Under the pieces are notes generated by a model that made no database searches, had not been told where the DNA came from, and saw only the letters and a list, made by a program, of their open reading frames with translations. The position numbers and the translations under genes are program-made. DNA of 64,000 bases from Escherichia coli (GTDB taxonomy: Bacteria > Pseudomonadota > Gammaproteobacteria > Enterobacterales > Enterobacteriaceae): the NCBI RefSeq assembly GCF_041248615.1, contig NZ_CP158426.1; one strand, written 5' to 3'. Position 1 is the stretch's first letter. Each line of letters begins with the position of its first letter. Shown here one piece after another: positions 1-18,258 of this stretch.

Positions 1-134
1 TGCATGGCGTTGCCTCATAATCATGTAATGGGATAACAGTTTACGAACCCGTTATGGCTTTATATGTGATCTGAATCTCATTAATTATGCAACGCGTGAA
101 ACTTACATCAAAAATGCGCGACGCATCGCAAATT

Positions 135-1261
<1,127 letters not shown>

Positions 1262-1355
1262 TTAATTCGTAAAACGTGCTACCGATCACATTAAGAATTC
1301 TCAGCATAGTTGAATTTTAGGGACGTAACCTCGGGCGAGCGCCCAGTTCAGCACA

Positions 1356-2264
1356 CTAATTCTGCTGTAAAAAGTGCAGAAACTGACTTAAAGCATAAGA
1401 AGGCGTTTCGTTATTGCGCCAGAACACACCGACGCTGCCTTTCTGTTCTATCTTTGGCAGGTTGAGGATCACCAGTTGTCCCTGGCTGGCATAACGTTGC
1501 GCCAGGCGTAATGACAAAATAGAGATCATATCGCTGCTTTGTAACAGGTTGGTACTGACGTTCATCGACGCCGACTCAATCGTGTTTTCTGGCAGCATCA
1601 CGCCGTGGTCTACCAGCGCATTATCAATACTGATGCGAATGGGGGTACCTGTCGGCCAGACTATCCACCGCCAGTTAGCAAGATCATTCCAACTGAGGGT
1701 GGCGTATTTCGCCAGTGGATGCTCAGCACGGGCGACAAAACACACCGGCTCGGTGTAGAGCACCTTATAATTCAGTGGCAGCTGCAAGGCGCGACCGCCA
1801 ATTCGCCCAACGACCACGTCGACAGAACCTGCCAACAGATCTTGCAGCAATGGGGTCATAACCTTCTCTTCAATATTCAGGTGTAGAGTTGGCATCTCCT
1901 TGAGCAAATGCAAAATCGCCTGGGATACGCAGTCAGTGGCGACGGGAGAACAGCCAATTTTCAGACTGCCGACCAGCCCACCTTGTTTAAAACGGGCCAG
2001 TTCATGTTGCGAGCGCTCCATGTCATTGATTAACCGCTGGGCATGTTGCAATAACAATCTACCGCCTTCGGTAGGGCGTAACCCTTTGCTGTGCCGCTCA
2101 AAGAGTGTGAGGCCGATCTCATCTTCGAGTTGTGACAACCATTTCGACAGCGCAGGCTGGGTGATATTCATCATCCGCGCGACATGGGTCAGATTGCCCT
2201 GTTCACCCAGCGCCACCAGCATTTGCAGGTGATGAAGCTTTAGTTTCTGCGCCCAGTTTGCCAT
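1356..2264 (-). CDS. mhbR: LysR-family transcriptional regulator, divergent from the catabolic operon (MhbR-like)
   Basis: N-terminal HTH (LKLHHLQMLVALGEQGNLTHVARMMNITQPALSKWL) followed by a LysR substrate-binding domain; divergent to the transporter gene; start set at Met17 of the ORF. Confidence 0.75.
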   Translation of the reverse strand: MANWAQKLKLHHLQMLVALGEQGNLTHVARMMNITQPALSKWLSQLEDEIGLTLFERHSKGLRPTEGGRLLLQHAQRLINDMERSQHELARFKQGGLVGSLKIGCSPVATDCVSQAILHLLKEMPTLHLNIEEKVMTPLLQDLLAGSVDVVVGRIGGRALQLPLNYKVLYTEPVCFVARAEHPLAKYATLSWNDLANWRWIVWPTGTPIRISIDNALVDHGVMLPENTIESASMNVSTNLLQSSDMISILSLRLAQRYASQGQLVILNLPKIEQKGSVGVFWRNNETPSYALSQFLHFLQQN

Positions 2265-2390
2265 TTGCCATAACCTCCAGGTTATCTCTCTGCCCGAAAT
2301 GCCATTGTACATTTCATCTCTTTAATCACAATATCGCAACATACATAAAACAAAAGAAACATCTACCTTACCTGCACTGAGGCATTTACT

Positions 2391-3749
2391 ATGACTCAAC
2401 GACGTGATTTACAAGCACTGATCGATGCTGCTCCGGTCGGCAAGATGCAGTGGCGCGTTATCATCTGCTGTTTTCTGGTGGTAATGCTCGATGGTTTAGA
2501 CACCGCGGCTATCGGCTTTATCGCCCCTGATATTCGCACTCACTGGCAACTCACCGCAGGCGATCTCGCCCCGCTTTTTGGCGCGGGTCTGCTGGGGTTA
2601 ACCGCAGGCGCACTGCTTTGTGGTCCGTTGTCCGATCGCTTTGGCCGCAAACGGGTGATTGAGCTGTGCGTCTTTTTGTTTGGCGCGTTAAGCCTCGCCT
2701 CGGCTTTCTCACCGGATCTGCAAACGCTGGTATTCCTGCGTTTCCTCACCGGCCTTGGGCTGGGTGGCGCGATGCCAAACACAATTACCATGACCTCGGA
2801 ATATCTGCCTGCCCGCCGCCGCGGCGCGCTGGTGACGCTGATGTTTTGCGGCTTTACCCTGGGTTCGGCGTTTGGCGGGATTGTCAGCGCGCAGCTGGTG
2901 CCGGTGATTGGCTGGCACGGGATCCTGGTGTTGGGTGGCGTATTACCGCTGATGCTGTTTGTTGCACTGCTGGTGGTTCTGCCGGAATCGCCACGCTGGC
3001 AAGTGCGCCGCCAGCTACCCCGGGCGGTGATTGCGAAAACCGTCAGCGCCATCACCCGCGAGCGTTATGTCGATACCCACTTTTATCTCATTGAATCAGC
3101 CTCCGTTACAAAAGGCAGCATTCGTCAACTGTTTATGGGGCGTCAGTTACCCATCACGTTGATGCTGTGGGTGGTGTTCTTTATGAGCTTGCTGATTATT
3201 TACCTGCTCTCAAGCTGGATGCCAACGCTGCTCAACCATCGCGGCATCGACCTGCAACATGCCTCCTGGGTTACCGCCGCGTTCCAGATTGGCGGTACGT
3301 TGGGCGCGCTGGCGCTGGGCGTGCTGATGGATAAGTTCAATCCTTTCCGCGTACTGGCGCTGAGCTATGCCATAGGCGCTGTATGCATCGTGATGATTGG
3401 CTTAAGCCAGGACGGATTATGGCTAATGGCGCTGGCGATTTTCGGCACCGGCATTGGCATCAGCGGATCGCAGGTGGGGCTGAATGCGCTGACCGCAACA
3501 CTTTATCCAACACAAAGTCGCGCCACGGGCGTGAGCTGGTCAAACGCCGTGGGCCGCTGCGGCGCGATTGTTGGCTCGCTGTCTGGCGGCGTGATGATGG
3601 CGATGAATTTCTCTTTCGACACCCTGTTTTTCATTATCGCTGTGCCCGCGGCGATCAGTGCGGTGATGTTAACCCTGCTGATCACCGTGGTTCGCCAGTC
3701 GACCTCTGTCCCTGACTCACTGCCTCACGCAGGTGTTGTGAACGAATAA
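2391..3749 (+). CDS. mhbT: MFS aromatic-acid transporter (3-hydroxybenzoate/gentisate type)
   Basis: 452 aa, about 12 TM segments, MFS signature motifs (GRKR after TM2); first gene of the catabolic operon. Confidence 0.8.
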
Positions 3750-3760
3750 GGAGCATCCCA

Positions 3761-4789
3761 ATGACTGATAACAATCAAAATAGCCGCGAGCAATTTTATC
3801 AGCATATTTCCGGGCAAAACCTGACCCCGCTGTGGGAGTCACTGCACCATCTGGTGCCAAAAACGCCCAACGCTAACTGTGCGCCAGCGTACTGGAATTA
3901 TCAGGAGATCCGCCCGCTGCTGCTGGAGAGCGGCAGCCTGATTGGCGCGAAAGAAGCCGTGCGCCGCGTGCTGGTGCTGGAAAACCCGGCGCTGCGCGGG
4001 CAGTCTTCCATCACCGCGACTTTATATGCCGGTTTGCAACTGATCATGCCGGGCGAAGTGGCACCGAGTCATCGCCATAACCAGTCGGCGCTGCGTTTTA
4101 TTGTTGAAGGTAAAGGGGCATTCACCGCCGTTGATGGCGAACGCACGCCAATGAATGAGGGCGATTTTATCCTGACTCCGCAGTGGCGCTGGCACGATCA
4201 CGGTAACCCTGGCGACGAACCGGTTATCTGGCTCGATGGGCTGGATCTGCCATTAGTGAACACTCTGGGCTGCGGTTTTGCCGAAGATTACCCGGAGGAG
4301 CAACAACCAGTAACGCGTAAAGAGGGCGATTACCTGCCGCGTTACGCTGCCAATATGTTGCCGCTGCGCCATCAGACCGGGAACTCCTCGCCCATCTTTA
4401 ACTACCGTTATGACCGTAGCCGCGAAGTGCTACACGATTTAACCCGCCTGGGCGATGCCGATGAGTGGGATGGCTACAAAATGCGCTACGTCAACCCGGT
4501 CACCGGTGGCTATCCGATGCCGTCGATGGGCGCTTTCCTGCAACTGCTGCCGAAAGGGTTTGCCTCACGCGTGGCGCGTACCACTGACAGCACCATCTAC
4601 CATGTAGTGGAAGGTAGCGGGCAGGTCACTATCGGCAATGAAACCTTCAGCTTTAGTGCAAAAGATATCTTCGTGGTGCCGACCTGGCACGGCGTGTCGT
4701 TCCAGACCACGCAAGATACCGTTTTATTTAGTTTTTCGGACAGACCGGTACAAGAAGCCCTGGGGCTGTTCCGCGAAGCGCGTTATTAA
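3761..4789 (+). CDS. mhbD: gentisate 1,2-dioxygenase (bicupin)
   Basis: 342 aa; cupin metal-binding His motifs ([11 protein letters not shown]...WHDHGN); operon context with fumarylpyruvate hydrolase and maleylpyruvate isomerase. Confidence 0.85.
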
Positions 4790-4804
4790 TTTGGGAGAGA
4801 GAAA

Positions 4805-5506
4805 ATGACTCAATACGTATTCGAACCACAAGCGCCCGTTACCGTACCGGTTGTTGGCAGTGATGAACAATTCCCCGTACGCCGCGTTTACTGCGTCGGA
4901 CGTAACTATGCCGCCCACGCCCGCGAAATGGGCTTTGATCCGGATCGTGAACCGCCATTCTTCTTCTGCAAACCGGCGGATGCCGTTGTTCCGGTTGCCG
5001 CTGGCGAAACGCTGGCGCTGCCGTATCCGGCGCAGACCGATAACTACCATTATGAAATTGAACTGGTGGTGGCGATTGGTAAAAAAGGCAGTGATATCCC
5101 GCTGGAAAACGCCCATGAATATGTCTGGGGTTATGCCACGGGTCTTGATATGACTCGCCGTGACCGTCAAATGGAAATGCGCCAGATGGGCCGCCCGTGG
5201 GAAATCGGCAAAGCGTTCGATCTCTCGGCCCCCATCGCGCCGCTGCACAAAGCCAGCGAAACTGGCGGTATTGATAACGCACCTATCTGGTTACAGGTTA
5301 ACGGCGAAGATCATCAGCGCAGCGATATTCGTCATCTCATCTGGTCAGTGAATGAAACCATCAGCTACCTGTCAGGCTTCTTTGAACTGCAACCGGGCGA
5401 TCTAATCTTTACCGGTACGCCGGAAGGGGTTGGCCCAGTAGTCAAAGGTGATGTGATCACGGGCAACGTCGAGGGCTTAACGCCTATCGCGGTGAAGATT
5501 GTCTGA
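4805..5506 (+). CDS. mhbH: fumarylpyruvate hydrolase (FAH family)
   Basis: 233 aa FAH-fold protein ([16 protein letters not shown]...GTPEGVG); position in gentisate operon. Confidence 0.8.
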
Positions 5507-5513
5507 GGTGATG

Positions 5514-6158
5514 ATGAAGCTGTACAGTTTTTTTAATAGTTCAGCGTCTTACCGGGTGCGCATTGCGCTGGCGCTGAAGGGTATCGATTACCAGACCGAA
5601 GGGGTGAATATCCGCATTGGTCAGCAAAACGAACTGGCCTACCGGCGGATGAATCCGGTCGGGCTGGTGCCGACGCTGCTGACCGACGAGGGCGAATCAC
5701 TCGGACAATCGCTGGCGATTATTGACTGGCTGGAGAGTCACTACCCGCAAGTTCCGCTGATGCCGCAGGAAGAACCGGCCCGCAACAAGGTGCTGGAAAT
5801 TGTCTATGCCATCGCCTGCGATATTCATCCATTGAATAACCTACGCGTGCTGCGCTACCTGACCGAAGAGCTGAACGTCAGTGAAGAAGATAAAAAACGC
5901 TGGTATGCGCACTGGATCCAGCAAGGGTTAAGCGCGGTGGAACAGCTACTGCGCCAGAGCCAGTCGGGGCAATTTTGTGTGGGCGAGACGCCGACGCTGG
6001 CAGATTGCTGCCTTGTTCCACAGTGGGCGAACGCGCTACGTATGAACTGCGATCTGAGCGGGTATCCGCGCTGCAAAGCGGTGTACGACGCCTGCACGCA
6101 GCTGCCAGCGTTCATTGCCGCAGCGCCAGAAAATCAACAAGATAAAATTTCAGCCTGA
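5514..6158 (+). CDS. mhbI: maleylpyruvate isomerase (glutathione S-transferase zeta-like)
   Basis: GST N-terminal thioredoxin-like fold (MKLYSFFNSSASYRVRIALALKGIDY); ORF begins at 5499 and overlaps the preceding gene, so start set at MKLYSF. Confidence 0.8.
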   Translation: MKLYSFFNSSASYRVRIALALKGIDYQTEGVNIRIGQQNELAYRRMNPVGLVPTLLTDEGESLGQSLAIIDWLESHYPQVPLMPQEEPARNKVLEIVYAIACDIHPLNNLRVLRYLTEELNVSEEDKKRWYAHWIQQGLSAVEQLLRQSQSGQFCVGETPTLADCCLVPQWANALRMNCDLSGYPRCKAVYDACTQLPAFIAAAPENQQDKISA

Positions 6159-6172
6159 CCAGGAGAACCATA

Positions 6173-7366
6173 ATGACTAAAGTGACACGCGCAGTAATTG
6201 TGGGAGGCGGGATCGGCGGTGCGGCAACTGCGTTGTCACTGGCCCGCCAGGGGATCAAAGTGGTGCTGCTGGAAAAGGCGCATGAGATCGGTGAGATTGG
6301 CGCAGGTATCCAGTTGGGGCCAAATGCGTTTTCGGCGTTGGATAGCCTCGGCGTCGGCGAAATCGCCCGCCAGCGCGCGGTATTCACCGATCACATCACC
6401 ATGATGGATGCGGTAAACGCCGAAGAAGTGGTGCGCATTGAAACCGGTCAGGCCTTTCGCGATCATTTCGGCGGCCCTTACGCGGTGATCCACCGGGTTG
6501 ATATTCACGCCTCGGTGTGGGAAGCGGTACTGACGCATCCGGACGTGGAATATCACACCTCCACCAACGTCGTGGATATTCGCGAGACAGAAGACGATGT
6601 CACCGTTTTCGACGATCGCGGCAATAGTTGGATCGGCGATATTCTGATTGGCTGTGACGGCGTGAAGTCAGTGGTGCGCCAGAGCTTATTGGGCGATGCG
6701 CCGCGTGTCACCGGGCATGTGGTCTACCGTGCGGTTATCGATTGTGCCGATATGCCGGAAGATTTGCGCATTAACGCACCAGTATTGTGGGCGGGGCCGT
6801 GCTGTCACTTGGTGCATTACCCTTTACGCGGCGGCAAGCAGTATAACCTGGTGGTGACATTCCACAGCCGCCAGCAGGAAGAGTGGGGCGTGAAGGATGG
6901 CAGTAAAGAGGAAGTGCTCTCTTACTTTGAAGGGATTCACCCCCGTCCGCGCCAGATGCTGGATAAACCGACCTCCTGGCGACGCTGGTCAACCGCCGAC
7001 CGTGAACCGGTAGCGAAGTGGGGAACGAAGCGCATTACGCTGGTGGGCGATGCGGCCCATCCGGTGGCGCAGTATATGGCGCAGGGTGCCTGTATGGCGC
7101 TGGAAGACGCGGTAACACTGGGTAAGGCGCTGGCGCAGTGTGAGGGTGATGCGGCACAAGCCTTTGCGCTGTATGAGTCGGTACGTATTCCGCGCACCGC
7201 GCGCATCGTCTGGTCGACCCGTGAAATGGGGCGGGTTTATCATGCCGCAGGAGTAGAGCGCCAGGTACGTAACCTGCTGTGGAAAGGGAAATCGCAGGCA
7301 GAGTTTTACCGCGGCATGGAGTGGCTGTACGGCTGGAAAGAAGATAACTGTTTGCAACCACGCTGA
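6173..7366 (+). CDS. mhbM: 3-hydroxybenzoate 6-hydroxylase (FAD-dependent monooxygenase)
   Basis: 397 aa; FAD-binding GxGxxG ([14 protein letters not shown]) and DG / GD flavoprotein monooxygenase motifs (GCDGVKS, GDAAH). Confidence 0.85.
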
Positions 7367-7387
7367 GTACTTTAATCCGTTGACCAT

Positions 7388-7415
7388 AGGCGCTAACATA
7401 GCGCCTCATTTTTTT
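7388..7415 (+). terminator. rho-independent terminator after mhbM
   Basis: hairpin AGGCGCT-aacat-AGCGCCT followed by a T7 tract, between the mhbM stop and the dusC start. Confidence 0.6.
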
Positions 7416-7427
7416 GCGGGTGATGAT

Positions 7428-8375
7428 ATGCGTGTGTTACTGGCACCGATGGAGGGAGTGCTTGACTCTCTGGTGCGTGAATTGCTGACCGAAGTTAACG
7501 ACTACGATCTGTGCATCACCGAGTTTGTCCGCGTGGTGGATCAACTGCTGCCGTTAAAAGTCTTTCATCGCATTTGCCCTGAGCTACAAAACGCCAGCCG
7601 GACACCATCTGGTACGCTGGTGCGCGTGCAGTTGTTAGGTCAGTTCCCACAATGGCTGGCAGAGAACGCCGCCCGTGCGGTGGAGTTAGGTTCCTGGGGC
7701 GTGGATCTCAATTGCGGCTGCCCGTCGAAAACGGTCAACGGTAGCGGTGGTGGGGCGACGTTACTCAAAGATCCTGAACTCATCTACCAGGGTGCAAAAG
7801 CGATGCGTGAAGCTGTACCGGCGCATTTGCCCGTCAGCGTGAAAGTGCGTCTGGGCTGGGACAGCGGTGAGAAGAAATTTGAAATCGCCGATGCGGTTCA
7901 ACAGGCTGGTGCTACGGAGCTGGTGGTGCATGGACGGACAAAAGAGCAGGGTTACCGCGCGGAGCATATTGACTGGCAGGCGATTGGCGAGATTCGCCAG
8001 CGGCTGAATATTCCGGTGATTGCCAACGGTGAAATCTGGGACTGGCAGAGTGCGCAACAATGTATGGCGATCAGCGGCTGCGACGCAGTGATGATTGGTC
8101 GCGGGGCGCTCAATATTCCCAACCTGAGCCGGGTGGTAAAATATAACGAACCGCGAATGCCGTGGCCGGAGGTGGTTGCTTTGCTGCAAAAATATACCCG
8201 TCTGGAAAAGCAGGGCGATACCGGGTTATATCACGTTGCGCGGATTAAACAGTGGTTGAGTTATTTGCGTAAAGAATACGATGAAGCAACGGAATTATTT
8301 CAGCATGTTCGGGTGTTGAATAATTCCCCTGATATTGCAAGGGCTATTCAGGCAATTGATATCGAGAAACTCTAA
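7428..8375 (+). CDS. dusC: tRNA-dihydrouridine(16) synthase C
   Basis: ORF 7380-8375; start set at [13 protein letters not shown] giving 315 aa; Dus TIM-barrel motifs; matches recalled DusC. Confidence 0.9.
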
Positions 8376-8416
8376 AAAACCATAGTGATGTTTTTTGACA
8401 ATGTGTTAGCTCTTTA

Positions 8417-8677
8417 TCAATAGGCCGCACGGTTGTTTGGTGGCGTCAAAATTGCCGAGGCGTTCCCTGAAGGCCGGGGCAGCCCACATGGATGTGGGCT
8501 GAGGGCGCGTTTTACAGGGATGTTACCTCGCGCCCGACCCGGTAGCCGTAAGGGATAAGCCGAGGGCACCGCGCAGCGGCGATTTTGTTCGCCAGAGCCC
8601 GGGGGTGCAGGGGGCGGCGGCGATTGGCCGCCCCCTGCGCGCTCCTTGCGCCAGTGATTATATGAAGCAATACACAT
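8417..8677. repeat. GC-rich palindromic intergenic element (not classic REP consensus)
   Basis: about 260 bp of very high GC with several perfect hairpins (CAGCCCACAT/ATGTGGGCTG; GCAGGGGGCGGC/GCCGCCCCCTGC); the 86-aa ORF on the minus strand is low-complexity Pro/Gly/Arg-rich and is probably not coding. Confidence 0.45.
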
Positions 8678-8747
8678 GACAGGAGCGCAACAGGATGAGA
8701 GACTGAAATATTCTCGTTATTTTCGGACCTGATGACATTAATTAATT

Positions 8748-8831
8748 TTAAAATATCATCTTAAATACGCCAGTCACCACCAGTAGCCCAATCAGGAAAA
8801 TAATCAATACAGCCCAGAGTATAATTTTCAT
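8748..8831 (-). CDS. yohP: 27-aa small membrane protein
   Basis: manual translation of the minus strand gives MKIILWAVLIIFLIGLLVVTGVFKMIF, identical to recalled YohP; below the ORF-track size cutoff. Confidence 0.85.
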   Translation of the reverse strand: MKIILWAVLIIFLIGLLVVTGVFKMIF

Positions 8832-9054
8832 TGGCGTTCCTTTATTTGTGAGTGCTGAATAAGTATAGGAAAAAACGAAGCCCTTTGCCGTTATCCATAA
8901 ACGATTAAGATAAATCGGAAGATATCATTCACTTAGTGTATATTTTTCTGGATATGTCGTTTTATTGCTACTGATGTATTGCCACGCGAAACTAAAAAAT
9001 ATATCGCAACACACGGTAATCTCCGCGCACCTTTTCTTACCTGATTATTCCCCC

Positions 9055-10491
9055 ATGAATCGTGATTCCTTTTATCCCGCCATCGCCTGTTTTCCGCTGT
9101 TACTGATGCTGGCCGGGTGTGCGCCTATGCATGAAACCCGCCAGGCGTTAAGCCAGCAAACGCCCGCTGCACAAGTTGACACCGCATTACCCACGGCGCT
9201 GAAAAATGGTTGGCCAGACAGCCAATGGTGGCTGGAGTATCACGATAATCAACTCACTTCCTTAATTAACAATGCACTACAGAACGCACCGGATATGCAG
9301 GTGGCTGAACAGCGCATTCAGCTAGCTGAAGCCCAGGCGAAGGCAATTGCTACTCAGGATGGTCCGCAGATCGACTTTTCTGCGGATATGGAGCGGCAAA
9401 AAATGTCGGCAGAAGGCTTAATGGGGCCGTTTGCTCTGAACGATCCGGCCGCAGGTACGACCGGTCCGTGGTACACCAACGGTACTTTTGGCTTAACGGT
9501 GGGCTGGCATCTCGATATCTGGGGAAAGAATCGGGCGGAGGTAACTGCTCGCCTGGGTACGGTTAAAGCACGAGCGGCGGAACGCGAGCAAACCCGCCAA
9601 TTGCTGGCTGGCAGCGTAGCCCGCCTGTACTGGGAGTGGCAGACCCAGGCGGCGTTAAACACGGTCTTGCAGCAAATCGAAAAAGAGCAGAACACTATTA
9701 TCGCGACCGATCGCCAGCTATATCAGAACGGGATTACTTCTTCAGTTGAAGGTGTGGAAACCGATATTAATGCCAGCAAAACCCGGCAGCAGCTCGACGA
9801 TGTCGCGGGGAAAATGAAAATTATTGAGGCACGGTTAAGCGCACTTACAAATCACCAGACAAAGGCATTGAAGCTTAATCCGGTCGCGTTGCCGAAAGTG
9901 GCAAGCCAGCTTCCTGATGAACTGGGGTACTCCTTACTGGCGCGGCGGGCAGATTTGCAGGCGGCGCACTGGTACGTTGAGTCATCGTTAAGCACTATTG
10001 ATGCGGCAAAAGCGGCATTTTATCCTGACATCAACCTGATGGCCTTCCTGCAACAGGATGCGTTGCACTTAAGCGATCTGTTCCGTCATTCCGCGCAGCA
10101 AATGGGCGTTACGGCAGGCCTGACGCTACCCATTTTCGATAGTGGTCGTCTTAACGCCAACCTCGATATCGCAAAAGCCGAAAGCAACTTGTCTATCGCC
10201 AGCTACAACAAAGCGGTGGTTGAAGCGGTGAATGACGTGGCGCGGGCAGCCAGTCAGGTTCAGACACTGGCGGAGAAAAACCAGCATCAGGCGCAAATTG
10301 AGCGCGATGCCTTGCGTGTAGTAGGTCTTGCGCAGGCGCGCTTTAACGCGGGCATCATTGCGGGTTCCCGCGTCAGCGAAGCCAGAATCCCCGCGCTGCG
10401 TGAGCGGGCCAATGGCCTGTTATTGCAAGGGCAGTGGCTGGATGCCTCCATTCAACTCACTGGTGCGTTGGGCGGGGGTTACAAACGTTGA
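9055..10491 (+). CDS. mdtQ: outer-membrane efflux lipoprotein (OMF/NodT family)
   Basis: ORF 8965-10491; start set at MNRDSF..., giving a lipobox LLMLAGC and 478 aa; OMF coiled-coil / beta-barrel architecture; intact single ORF. Confidence 0.8.
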   Translation: MNRDSFYPAIACFPLLLMLAGCAPMHETRQALSQQTPAAQVDTALPTALKNGWPDSQWWLEYHDNQLTSLINNALQNAPDMQVAEQRIQLAEAQAKAIATQDGPQIDFSADMERQKMSAEGLMGPFALNDPAAGTTGPWYTNGTFGLTVGWHLDIWGKNRAEVTARLGTVKARAAEREQTRQLLAGSVARLYWEWQTQAALNTVLQQIEKEQNTIIATDRQLYQNGITSSVEGVETDINASKTRQQLDDVAGKMKIIEARLSALTNHQTKALKLNPVALPKVASQLPDELGYSLLARRADLQAAHWYVESSLSTIDAAKAAFYPDINLMAFLQQDALHLSDLFRHSAQQMGVTAGLTLPIFDSGRLNANLDIAKAESNLSIASYNKAVVEAVNDVARAASQVQTLAEKNQHQAQIERDALRVVGLAQARFNAGIIAGSRVSEARIPALRERANGLLLQGQWLDASIQLTGALGGGYKR

Positions 10492-12000: not shown

Positions 12001-12169
12001 AGGCCAGTCTGTCTCCCTTTAGTTGCCTGTAAGCATACACCCTGTGAATAGTTCACGCTGAAAAAGGACGTACATCAGACGGTGCAAATTACATGAGCGA
12101 ACAAAAAATAATCACAAGCTGACTTATACTTGAACTGTCAGGTTCATGAACTCACAACAAGGGGGCGGT

Positions 12170-18150: not shown

Positions 18151-18258
18151 TATCTGATTCTGCAACTGAATCCGCCCAGACAGGCTAACCCTGTCATTAT
18201 CAACTATGCTTTTCTCTTAATTCGCTGAAAACAACAGTAAAAGAATGAGGAAAGCATC

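Follow-up and report, generated by a model that had tools for sequence, protein, structure and literature searches.

An intact 3-hydroxybenzoate/gentisate catabolic locus between yohJ and dusC of Escherichia coli, most likely an old enterobacterial locus lost by K-12

The stretch of Escherichia coli DNA analysed here (64,000 nucleotides; the window) contains an intact mhbR/mhbTDHIM locus. Very probably this locus has been inherited vertically among enterobacteria, in synteny between yohJ and dusC, and is retained in a minority of the lineages of E. coli. Most likely it is old and has disappeared from K-12 and the majority of E. coli, rather than being a new insertion. The K-12 allele without the cluster therefore represents the derived state, and the strain of the window keeps the ancestral locus. 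That E. coli O157:H7 has this pathway is already established, as are the pathway itself and its enzymes, and all are annotated in RefSeq; an earlier note on this DNA had rightly called the pathway a known one.

Gene organization

Junction alignments delimit a strain-variable segment of 6,072 bp at positions 1298-7369, within which all six open reading frames (1356-7366) are intact. The core flanks are yohJ, a member of the CidA/LrgA family at 827-1225 (minus strand), on the left and dusC, coding for a tRNA dihydrouridine(16) synthase at 7428-8375 (plus strand), on the right, both identified by profile matches and RefSeq annotation. E. coli NRZ14408 (NZ_LT599825.1) has a sequence identical to that of the window, and its RefSeq annotation shows these six genes. 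The regulatory gene mhbR (1356-2264, minus strand; RefSeq CDS) codes for a 302 aa LysR-type protein with the Pfam domains HTH_1 and LysR_substrate; its raw open reading frame reaches 2312, and the RefSeq start is the ATG at 2264. The remaining genes are transcribed rightwards on the plus strand and are separated by gaps of 7-15 nt: mhbT (2391-3749), mhbD/gtdA (3761-4789), mhbH (4805-5506), mhbI/maiA (5514-6158, with a raw open reading frame starting at 5499) and mhbM (6173-7366), with the sole strong terminator-like site located 3' of mhbM. Both content and order are of the mhbRTDHIM type, with a divergent LysR gene followed by those for a transporter, dioxygenase, hydrolase, isomerase and 6-hydroxylase. 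Together with family profiles and structure matches, this gene order confirms the description in the earlier note of a complete mhbRTDHIM-type 3-hydroxybenzoate/gentisate cluster.

Enzymes and transporter

MhbD is a bicupin gentisate 1,2-dioxygenase that scores 601 bits against TIGR02272 (cut-off 442) and matches the O157:H7 enzyme (PDB 2D40) with E = 1.4e-238. Its translation contains His104, His106 and His145, which we take to be the three iron ligands of gentisate dioxygenase. MhbM, an FAD-containing 3-hydroxybenzoate 6-monooxygenase with a GGGIGG dinucleotide-binding motif in its translation, matches NF006021 (755.8 bits, cut-off 459) and the PDB 4BJY group (E = 2.9e-78). MhbI is a GST-zeta, glutathione-dependent isomerase that scores 308.6 bits against TIGR01262 (cut-off 171) and matches PDB 2V6K/2JL4, labelled 'maleylpyruvate isomerase' (E = 3.5e-48); 6JWK is also among the structures of its close relatives, and context suggests that its substrate is maleylpyruvate, not maleylacetoacetate. 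MhbH, an FAH-family hydrolase and predicted fumarylpyruvate hydrolase, matches Pfam FAA_hydrolase (185.7 bits) and no NCBIfam equivalog at cut-off, and its best PDB matches are 6J5Y (E = 2.5e-113) and 4MAQ, a 'putative fumarylpyruvate hydrolase'. MhbT is an MFS protein (Pfam MFS_1; RefSeq name MhbT) and putative aromatic-acid:H+ symporter with a predicted role in 3-hydroxybenzoate uptake; it scores 378.8 bits against the NCBIfam AAHS subfamily and 427 bits against PcaK, under the respective cut-offs of 418.55 and 770. Because MhbT and MhbH do not reach the NCBIfam cut-offs (equivalog or subfamily), their substrates are assigned from context. The DGLD in TMH1 of the MhbT translation corresponds to the DGXD motif described in PMC5566891, where Xu 2012 is cited for MhbT as a 3-hydroxybenzoate transporter.

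Substrate flow, regulation and growth phenotype are predicted here by homology to the O157:H7 enzyme and to the characterised system of Klebsiella M5a1. MhbT would import 3-hydroxybenzoate, a plant phenolic, and MhbM would hydroxylate it at C6 to gentisate, whose ring would be opened by MhbD, an Fe2+ bicupin dioxygenase, to yield maleylpyruvate; MhbI would then use glutathione to isomerise maleylpyruvate to fumarylpyruvate, which MhbH would hydrolyse to fumarate and pyruvate. The predicted function as a 3-hydroxybenzoate/gentisate catabolic locus is well supported, and the cluster is under purifying selection, with dN/dS of 0.02-0.09 and internal stops in none of the alleles compared. Our literature search found no paper on an E. 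coli growth phenotype with 3-hydroxybenzoate or on the polymorphism described below. Since MhbT scores under the curated transporter cut-offs and the lower pathway (D, I and H) is common to many upper pathways, the cluster could be imagined to serve mainly gentisate or some other substituted hydroxybenzoate, such as plant or drug metabolites, and not 3-hydroxybenzoate. This is improbable given that the same operon contains a dedicated 3-hydroxybenzoate 6-monooxygenase equivalog scoring far above its cut-off, that RefSeq names the transporter MhbT, and that 3-hydroxybenzoate is the substrate of the systems in Klebsiella and Salmonella.

Regulator and divergent control region

The best NCBIfam match of MhbR is to the PcaQ-type LysR regulators, but its score (188.6 bits) is under the PcaQ cut-off of 303.8; it is 84-85% identical to the syntenic regulator of Klebsiella oxytoca/michiganensis and differs from PcaQ-type regulators in that it would control mhb genes, not pca genes. 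A 16-sequence multi-genus alignment of the mhbR/mhbT divergent control region (2265-2390) reveals a palindrome, ATAACCTCCAGGTTAT, at 2270-2285, together with the invariant sequences CCATTGTAC at 2302-2310 and CAACATA at 2337-2343. Read on the minus strand, the first of these invariant sequences provides the TACAAT -10 element of an mhbR promoter-like site, TTGTGA-16-TACAAT, at 2331-2304, and on the other side a Shine-Dalgarno sequence for mhbT, GAGG, is present at 2379-2382. The ATAACC-N4-GGTTAT palindrome resembles the ATAAC/GTTAT half-sites of PcaQ-type operators, for which the consensus ATAAC-N5/6-GTTAT is quoted in PMC3572157. We infer that MhbR, as a PcaQ-like protein, probably binds this conserved predicted site and would activate mhbTDHIM when substrate is present.

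Hairpin upstream of dusC

A terminator-like hairpin is located at 7388-7416 (plus strand), consisting of AGGCGCTA-ACA-TAGCGCCT and a T-run and ending 11 nt upstream of the dusC ATG. Positions 7388-7406 with the T-run constitute the best terminator-like site in the region, with a folding energy of -18.8 kcal/mol (z = -2.8). The earlier note had placed a terminator hairpin at the right edge of an insertion; the hairpin is real, but it does not mark an island edge, being part of the shared flank outside the variable segment and present in K-12 as well. Its core, GGCGCTA-NNN-TAGCGCC, is invariant and always adjoins dusC in 36 loci from more than ten genera. A search for known RNA families across positions 1-9000, hairpin included, gave only a sub-threshold TwoAYGGAY match at 8433-8584, and a consensus scan of the K-12 yohJ-dusC spacer gave no promoter for dusC.

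Distribution in E. coli

Among 5426 complete E. coli genomes, the cluster is present somewhere in 611 (about 11%) and at yohJ-dusC in 504 (9%), such that its strain-variable nature, asserted beforehand, is confirmed. At the same site 4918 genomes (about 91%), K-12 included, have an unrelated 109-bp filler, and with the two alleles accounting for 5422 of the 5426 genomes the site is cleanly biallelic. In the K-12 derivative ER2683, yohJ and dusC are adjacent and divergent, 238 bp apart and without the cluster, just as the earlier note had stated for K-12. Secondary copies of the cluster are found in genomic islands beside cadC or yghD and in IS1/IS1414-flanked plasmid segments. In a rare mosaic, O157:H7 TR01, the cluster is flanked by the outer parts of the filler, with recombination breakpoints right at the junctions.

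The filler was considered as a deletion scar made of the ends of mhbR and mhbM, and this was rejected; blastn-short against all loci gave only 12-13-mers, and in an anchored spliced alignment to the cluster ends, shuffled sequences scored as high in 15.7% of cases for the middle 48 nt and in 14.5% for the entire filler. The 109-bp filler thus has no demonstrable homology to the cluster ends, and a deletion scar is not recognisable in it. A discrete mobile cassette was likewise rejected. The left end of the island copy is at window position 1304, at most 7 bp from the K-12 breakpoint (1298), but this is a weak sign because any functional copy has to break somewhere in the 130-bp yohJ-mhbR spacer, so that a coincidence of this kind would arise in roughly 10% of cases.

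Synteny and phylogeny

The order yohK-yohJ-mhbR/mhbTDHIM-dusC is kept in more than ten genera, including Escherichia albertii, the divergent Escherichia E69, Citrobacter, Klebsiella, Kluyvera, Raoultella, Pseudocitrobacter, Pluralibacter, Shimwellia, Entomohabitans and others, as seen among the best 80 of 267 relatives, a set to which Salmonella and cluster-less outgroups do not belong. A neighbor-joining tree of the cluster is congruent with trees of the flanking core genes, and the distances match: for the cluster and for yohKJ respectively, they are 17.5% and 18-19.5% to Citrobacter, 21% and 21% to K. oxytoca, 9% and 11.8% to E. albertii, and 8% and 6.9% to E69. All E. coli copies of the cluster group together in a single clade that excludes E. 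albertii and E69. Within E. coli, the cluster alleles differ by 3-5% at the nucleotide level and the flanks by 1-2%, with dS of 0.13-0.24 among cluster alleles versus about 0.07 in the flanks; between the window and O157 there is a step in divergence close to the junctions.

Relationship to known systems

PMC3572157 deals with the mhb genes of K. pneumoniae M5a1 and their LysR activator MhbR, and also with the Salmonella gentisate pathway. The mhbRTDHIM cluster of Klebsiella pneumoniae/oxytoca M5a1 agrees with the present locus in its six genes, their order and their orientation, including a divergent LysR regulator. The comparison was made via K. oxytoca NBRC 105695 and K. michiganensis DSM 25444; the K. 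oxytoca/K. michiganensis loci are syntenic, also lying between yohJ and dusC, and their proteins are 84-92% identical. The Klebsiella mhb cluster is an orthologue in another genus, with a nucleotide divergence of about 21%. The E. coli O157:H7 gentisate 1,2-dioxygenase locus (PDB 2D40; Adams et al. 2006) is the same locus at the same site, although its allele shows a nucleotide divergence of 4.4%, its dioxygenase differs from that of the window at 4 residues, and its mhbM is followed, before the dusC hairpin, by an additional repeat-like element of 98 bp; the biochemistry of this dioxygenase is credited to Adams 2006 in PMC4585797. The nagIKL genes of Ralstonia sp. U2 (NagI dioxygenase, NagL GSH-dependent maleylpyruvate isomerase and NagK fumarylpyruvate hydrolase) perform the same three lower-pathway chemistries, and MhbI matches the NagL structures 2V6K and 2JL4, but they are part of a naphthalene/salicylate operon with another upper pathway and regulator and are only a distant relative.

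Ancestral or inserted

The earlier note took the six genes for an insertion into a K-12-like site, and the evidence does not support this interpretation. It is true that horizontal acquisition of an accessory island, which would have entered an originally empty yohJ-dusC site, would fit the absence of the cluster from the site in K-12 and nine-tenths of the genomes, the capacity of the cluster to move (as seen in its island and plasmid copies), the position of the cluster between the outer filler parts in TR01, and a somewhat raised G+C content; the cluster has 55.6% G+C, just over the 55.4% that is the highest local value among equally long segments, against 48% in the rest of the window and 53.6% in dusC. 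Such an acquisition is nonetheless highly improbable, being largely refuted already by identical position and orientation in so many genera and by cluster trees and distances that agree with those of the core flanks, and the placement of E. albertii and E69 outside a single E. coli clade also speaks against it. Moreover, the open reading frame list and profile searches gave no integrase or transposase and no tRNA in 1298-7369, there are no direct or inverted repeats or target-site duplications at 1298 and 7369, and the two junctions have no k-mer of at least 7 bases in common, sharing a single 6-mer, below chance expectation. Same-site synteny, the congruent tree and distances, and the lack of boundary repeats, integrase and transposase thus argue that the cluster is ancestral and was lost from most E. 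coli.

The greater divergence of the cluster alleles relative to the flanks raises the further prospect that allelic replacement may have returned the cluster to some lineages. In its full form, the locus would be ancestral in the genus but regained after loss, in the strain of the window or in other E. coli lineages, by homologous recombination through the yohJK/dusC flanks from another Escherichia lineage, in keeping with the deeper coalescence of the cluster alleles, the TR01 breakpoints exactly at the junctions, and the nearby step in divergence between the window and O157. We regard this as an unlikely alternative to uninterrupted inheritance, since the E. coli alleles form a clade apart from E69 and E. 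albertii, so that no foreign donor is identified, and deeper coalescence is also expected for a segment open to exchange in only about 10% of the population. A more speculative proposal, which we put forward with similarly low confidence, is that yohJ-dusC is a long-lived two-allele polymorphism under niche-dependent selection (e.g. by plant phenolics in habitats associated with ruminants or plants), in which the hairpin would be a dusC leader or insulator rather than simply an mhb terminator. If true, this would explain why the cluster alleles coalesce two to three times deeper than the flanks.

Implications

What this analysis adds is polarity, with K-12 as the derived, reduced state and the cluster as core-like across the Enterobacteriaceae. 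Beyond correct bookkeeping the result is of little consequence. It is relevant where K-12 serves as the reference against which an 'island' is defined, and also to metabolic models of E. coli other than K-12, in which the use of 3-hydroxybenzoate and gentisate should be included.

Organization of the mhb cluster

The interval between the core genes yohJ (827-1225, minus strand) and dusC (7428-8375, plus strand) contains a 3-hydroxybenzoate/gentisate cluster of six genes, and ORF calls in the window confirm the six reading frames listed in the earlier note. The LysR regulator gene mhbR (1356-2264) is transcribed leftwards, its raw reading frame extending to 2312 and its RefSeq start being the ATG at 2264. 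Transcribed rightwards are mhbT (2391-3749), coding for an MFS transporter, mhbD/gtdA (3761-4789) for gentisate 1,2-dioxygenase, mhbH (4805-5506) for an FAH-family hydrolase, mhbI/maiA (5514-6158) for a GST-zeta isomerase, and mhbM (6173-7366) for 3-hydroxybenzoate 6-monooxygenase. The chromosome of E. coli NRZ14408 matches the window at 100% identity, and its RefSeq annotation lists the identical gene set (mhbT, gtdA, maiA and so forth) in the yohJ-dusC interval. Because the gaps from mhbT through mhbM are only 7-15 nt and a scan of the region finds one strong terminator-like site, 3' of mhbM, mhbTDHIM fits a single operon. No allele compared has a disrupted copy of any of the six genes, and their dN/dS values of 0.02-0.09 are similar to those of the flanking core genes.

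Predicted pathway

The cluster is the orthologue of the characterized Klebsiella mhbRTDHIM genes, and the pathway scheme was established in Klebsiella pneumoniae M5a1 and Salmonella (PMC3572157). Three products score well above their NCBIfam equivalog cut-offs: the dioxygenase (601 bits against 442), the isomerase (maiA model; 309 against 171) and the monooxygenase (756 against 459). For the dioxygenase the structural match is 2D40 (E = 1.4e-238), the solved enzyme of O157:H7, which comes from the same locus and whose biochemistry is credited to Adams et al. 2006 in a passage of PMC4585797; the isomerase matches NagL maleylpyruvate isomerase structures, the hydrolase matches structures 6J5Y and 4MAQ ('putative fumarylpyruvate hydrolase'), and the monooxygenase matches the 4BJY group. 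The MhbT translation contains the DGXD motif of aromatic-acid:H+ symporters (as described in PMC5566891). In the predicted pathway, MhbT would take up 3-hydroxybenzoate, MhbM would hydroxylate it to gentisate, MhbD would cleave the ring to yield maleylpyruvate, MhbI with glutathione would convert this to fumarylpyruvate, and MhbH would hydrolyze the latter to fumarate and pyruvate; the substrates of MhbT and MhbH are assigned from context, since both proteins score under their NCBIfam equivalog/subfamily cut-offs. Apart from these two substrates, every cluster-defining feature testable in silico was found and none was contradicted.

Predicted regulation

Alignment of the 126-bp divergent region between mhbR and mhbT from 16 sequences (~10 genera) reveals three nearly invariant elements: the palindrome ATAACCTCCAGGTTAT (2270-2285), the segment CCATTGTAC (2302-2310), corresponding to the -10 of a promoter-like site that would serve mhbR on the minus strand, and CAACATA (2337-2343). 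The best family match of MhbR is PcaQ, although under the PcaQ cut-off. The half-sites of the palindrome, ATAAC/GTTAT, agree with the consensus that PMC3572157 quotes for PcaQ recognition, and Klebsiella MhbR is a LysR-type activator of mhbTDHI (PMC3572157); for these reasons the likeliest arrangement is a classical LysR one, in which MhbR would bind a predicted recognition site ~70 bp 5' of the mhbT start and overlapping the mhbR leader.

The hairpin upstream of dusC and other features of the window

Past the right end of the variable segment, at a distance of 19 bp, comes a terminator-like hairpin with a T-run (7388-7416). It had been described as a terminator at the right edge of an inserted segment; the hairpin is real and probably terminates mhbTDHIM, but it does not mark an island edge, since it lies in the shared flank and K-12 has it in identical form. 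The 36 loci in which it was found all share the invariant core GGCGCTA-NNN-TAGCGCC, and at each of them the hairpin immediately precedes the dusC ATG, including those (O157:H7, C. amalonaticus) in which repeat elements separate it from mhbM. With its invariant core, its constant place and its position outside the variable segment, the hairpin is thus a dusC-proximal core element. RNA folding pairs AUCCGU (7376-7381) with GCGGGU (7416-7421), adjoining the likely dusC ribosome-binding site, and the hairpin may be a dusC leader or an insulator.

The hairpin and T-run end 11 nt before the dusC ATG (7388-7427; 1924-1963 in comparison locus L002), leaving no promoter space between them; transcription of dusC must therefore either pass through the hairpin or start inside it. 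Some alleles, but not the window, have an extra GGG/CCC-rich, boxC/REP-like element of ~98 bp between the mhbM stop and the hairpin (7667-7786 in the O157:H7 locus L085, 8571-8690 in locus L089), of which the island copies described below share the first ~55 bp.

To the right of dusC, the dusC-yohP spacer (8401-8700) aligns poorly, with ~49% identity both to O157 and to the divergent Escherichia E69, and is probably a variable repeat region; an Rfam TwoAYGGAY match at 8433-8584 is sub-threshold (30.9 bits against 43). The mdtQ gene (9055-10491) is an intact 478-aa reading frame in the window and in NRZ14408; the annotation of ER2683, a K-12 derivative, lists it as a pseudogene with a frameshift. 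Within 7370-64000 some 6-kb stretches have a G+C content as low as 34% (mean 48%), and these may be genuinely foreign islands.

A two-state polymorphism

Junction alignments place the variable segment at 1298-7369 (6,072 bp). In the K-12 derivative yohJ and dusC are adjacent and divergent and the cluster is absent, in line with the earlier note; the segment is replaced by 109 bp of unrelated filler, in which a separate hairpin with an 11-bp stem occurs. In a set of 5426 complete E. coli genomes the native site is occupied by the cluster in 504 and by the filler in 4918 (together 5422), and the polymorphism is thus clean and two-state. The fillers of K-12 and a B2 APEC strain are the same (99% identity), and comparison with the cluster ends did not identify the filler as a recognizable scar.

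A mosaic is seen in O157:H7 TR01 (locus L091), where an O157-type cluster lies between outer pieces of filler, nt 1-46 of the filler query (46 nt; 12001-12046) to the left and nt 95-126 (32 nt; 18157-18188) to the right; the strain has the K-12 versions of the cdd and yohK proteins. Such mosaics occur in at most 3 of the 5426 genomes, and TR01 is evidence that recombination can have its breakpoints at the very junctions of the cluster.

Secondary copies

The cluster is present anywhere in the genome in 611 of the 5426 genomes. Chromosomal secondary copies (loci L003 and L090) lie on genomic islands bearing IS66/ISEc60, adjoining yghD in LAU-OXA; in O145 RM8843 the neighbour is cadC and an integrase remnant is present. 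Large plasmids carry the other copies, flanked by IS1A and IS1414, at 26 plasmid places; one such plasmid, the 186-kb pOkiPb01676_1 from bovine faeces, also carries S6 peptidase and F4-type fimbrial genes. The secondary copies group with the O157-type allele within the E. coli clade and are therefore derived from the native locus. A contig from a metagenome-assembled genome labelled Collinsella sp. (L048) is 99.9% identical to the LAU-OXA island copy save for a 1.39-kb internal deletion removing the 3' end of mhbD, mhbH and the 5' end of mhbI; it almost certainly comes from E. coli through mis-binning and carries a degraded copy.

Ancestry of the cluster

The earlier note interpreted the cluster as an accessory insertion. 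Polarity was assessed among cluster-bearing relatives, by scanning one genome per species for the dioxygenase (best 80 of 267 relatives) followed by tblastn of the flanks. The order yohK-yohJ-mhbR/mhbTDHIM-dusC is present in E. albertii and E69 (labelled E. coli), in at least seven Citrobacter species, in Klebsiella oxytoca, K. michiganensis, K. grimontii and K. spallanzanii, and in Kluyvera, Raoultella, Pseudocitrobacter, Pluralibacter, Shimwellia, Entomohabitans and further Enterobacteriaceae. The neighbour-joining tree of the cluster agrees with the yohKJ and dusC trees, and the distances of cluster and flanks are similar: 17.5% and 18-20% to Citrobacter, 21% and 21-22% to K. oxytoca, 9% and 11.8% (yohKJ) to E. 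albertii, and 8% and 6.4-6.9% to E69. Neither mobility genes within the cluster segment nor repeats at its two junctions were found, and no mark of a horizontally inserted island in gene content, junctions, position or phylogeny was seen at the native site. Given this shared synteny, the congruent trees and distances, and a segment free of mobility genes and junction repeats, insertion is not borne out. The simplest reading of these sequence comparisons is that the whole segment has been vertically inherited since before the split of these genera, and would have been lost or replaced on the branch or branches that gave rise to K-12 and the majority of E. coli.

Some observations temper this reading: the filler is no recognizable scar, the cluster has a mildly raised G+C content (55.6%), and its E. 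coli alleles differ by 3-5% where their flanks differ by 1-2%. This last contrast fits either less homogenizing recombination among the ~10% of strains that carry it or occasional regain via allelic replacement. The presence of the cluster is confirmed, though it was known before and its annotation is complete; the sole correction is that K-12, not the window strain, is the derived state at yohJ-dusC.
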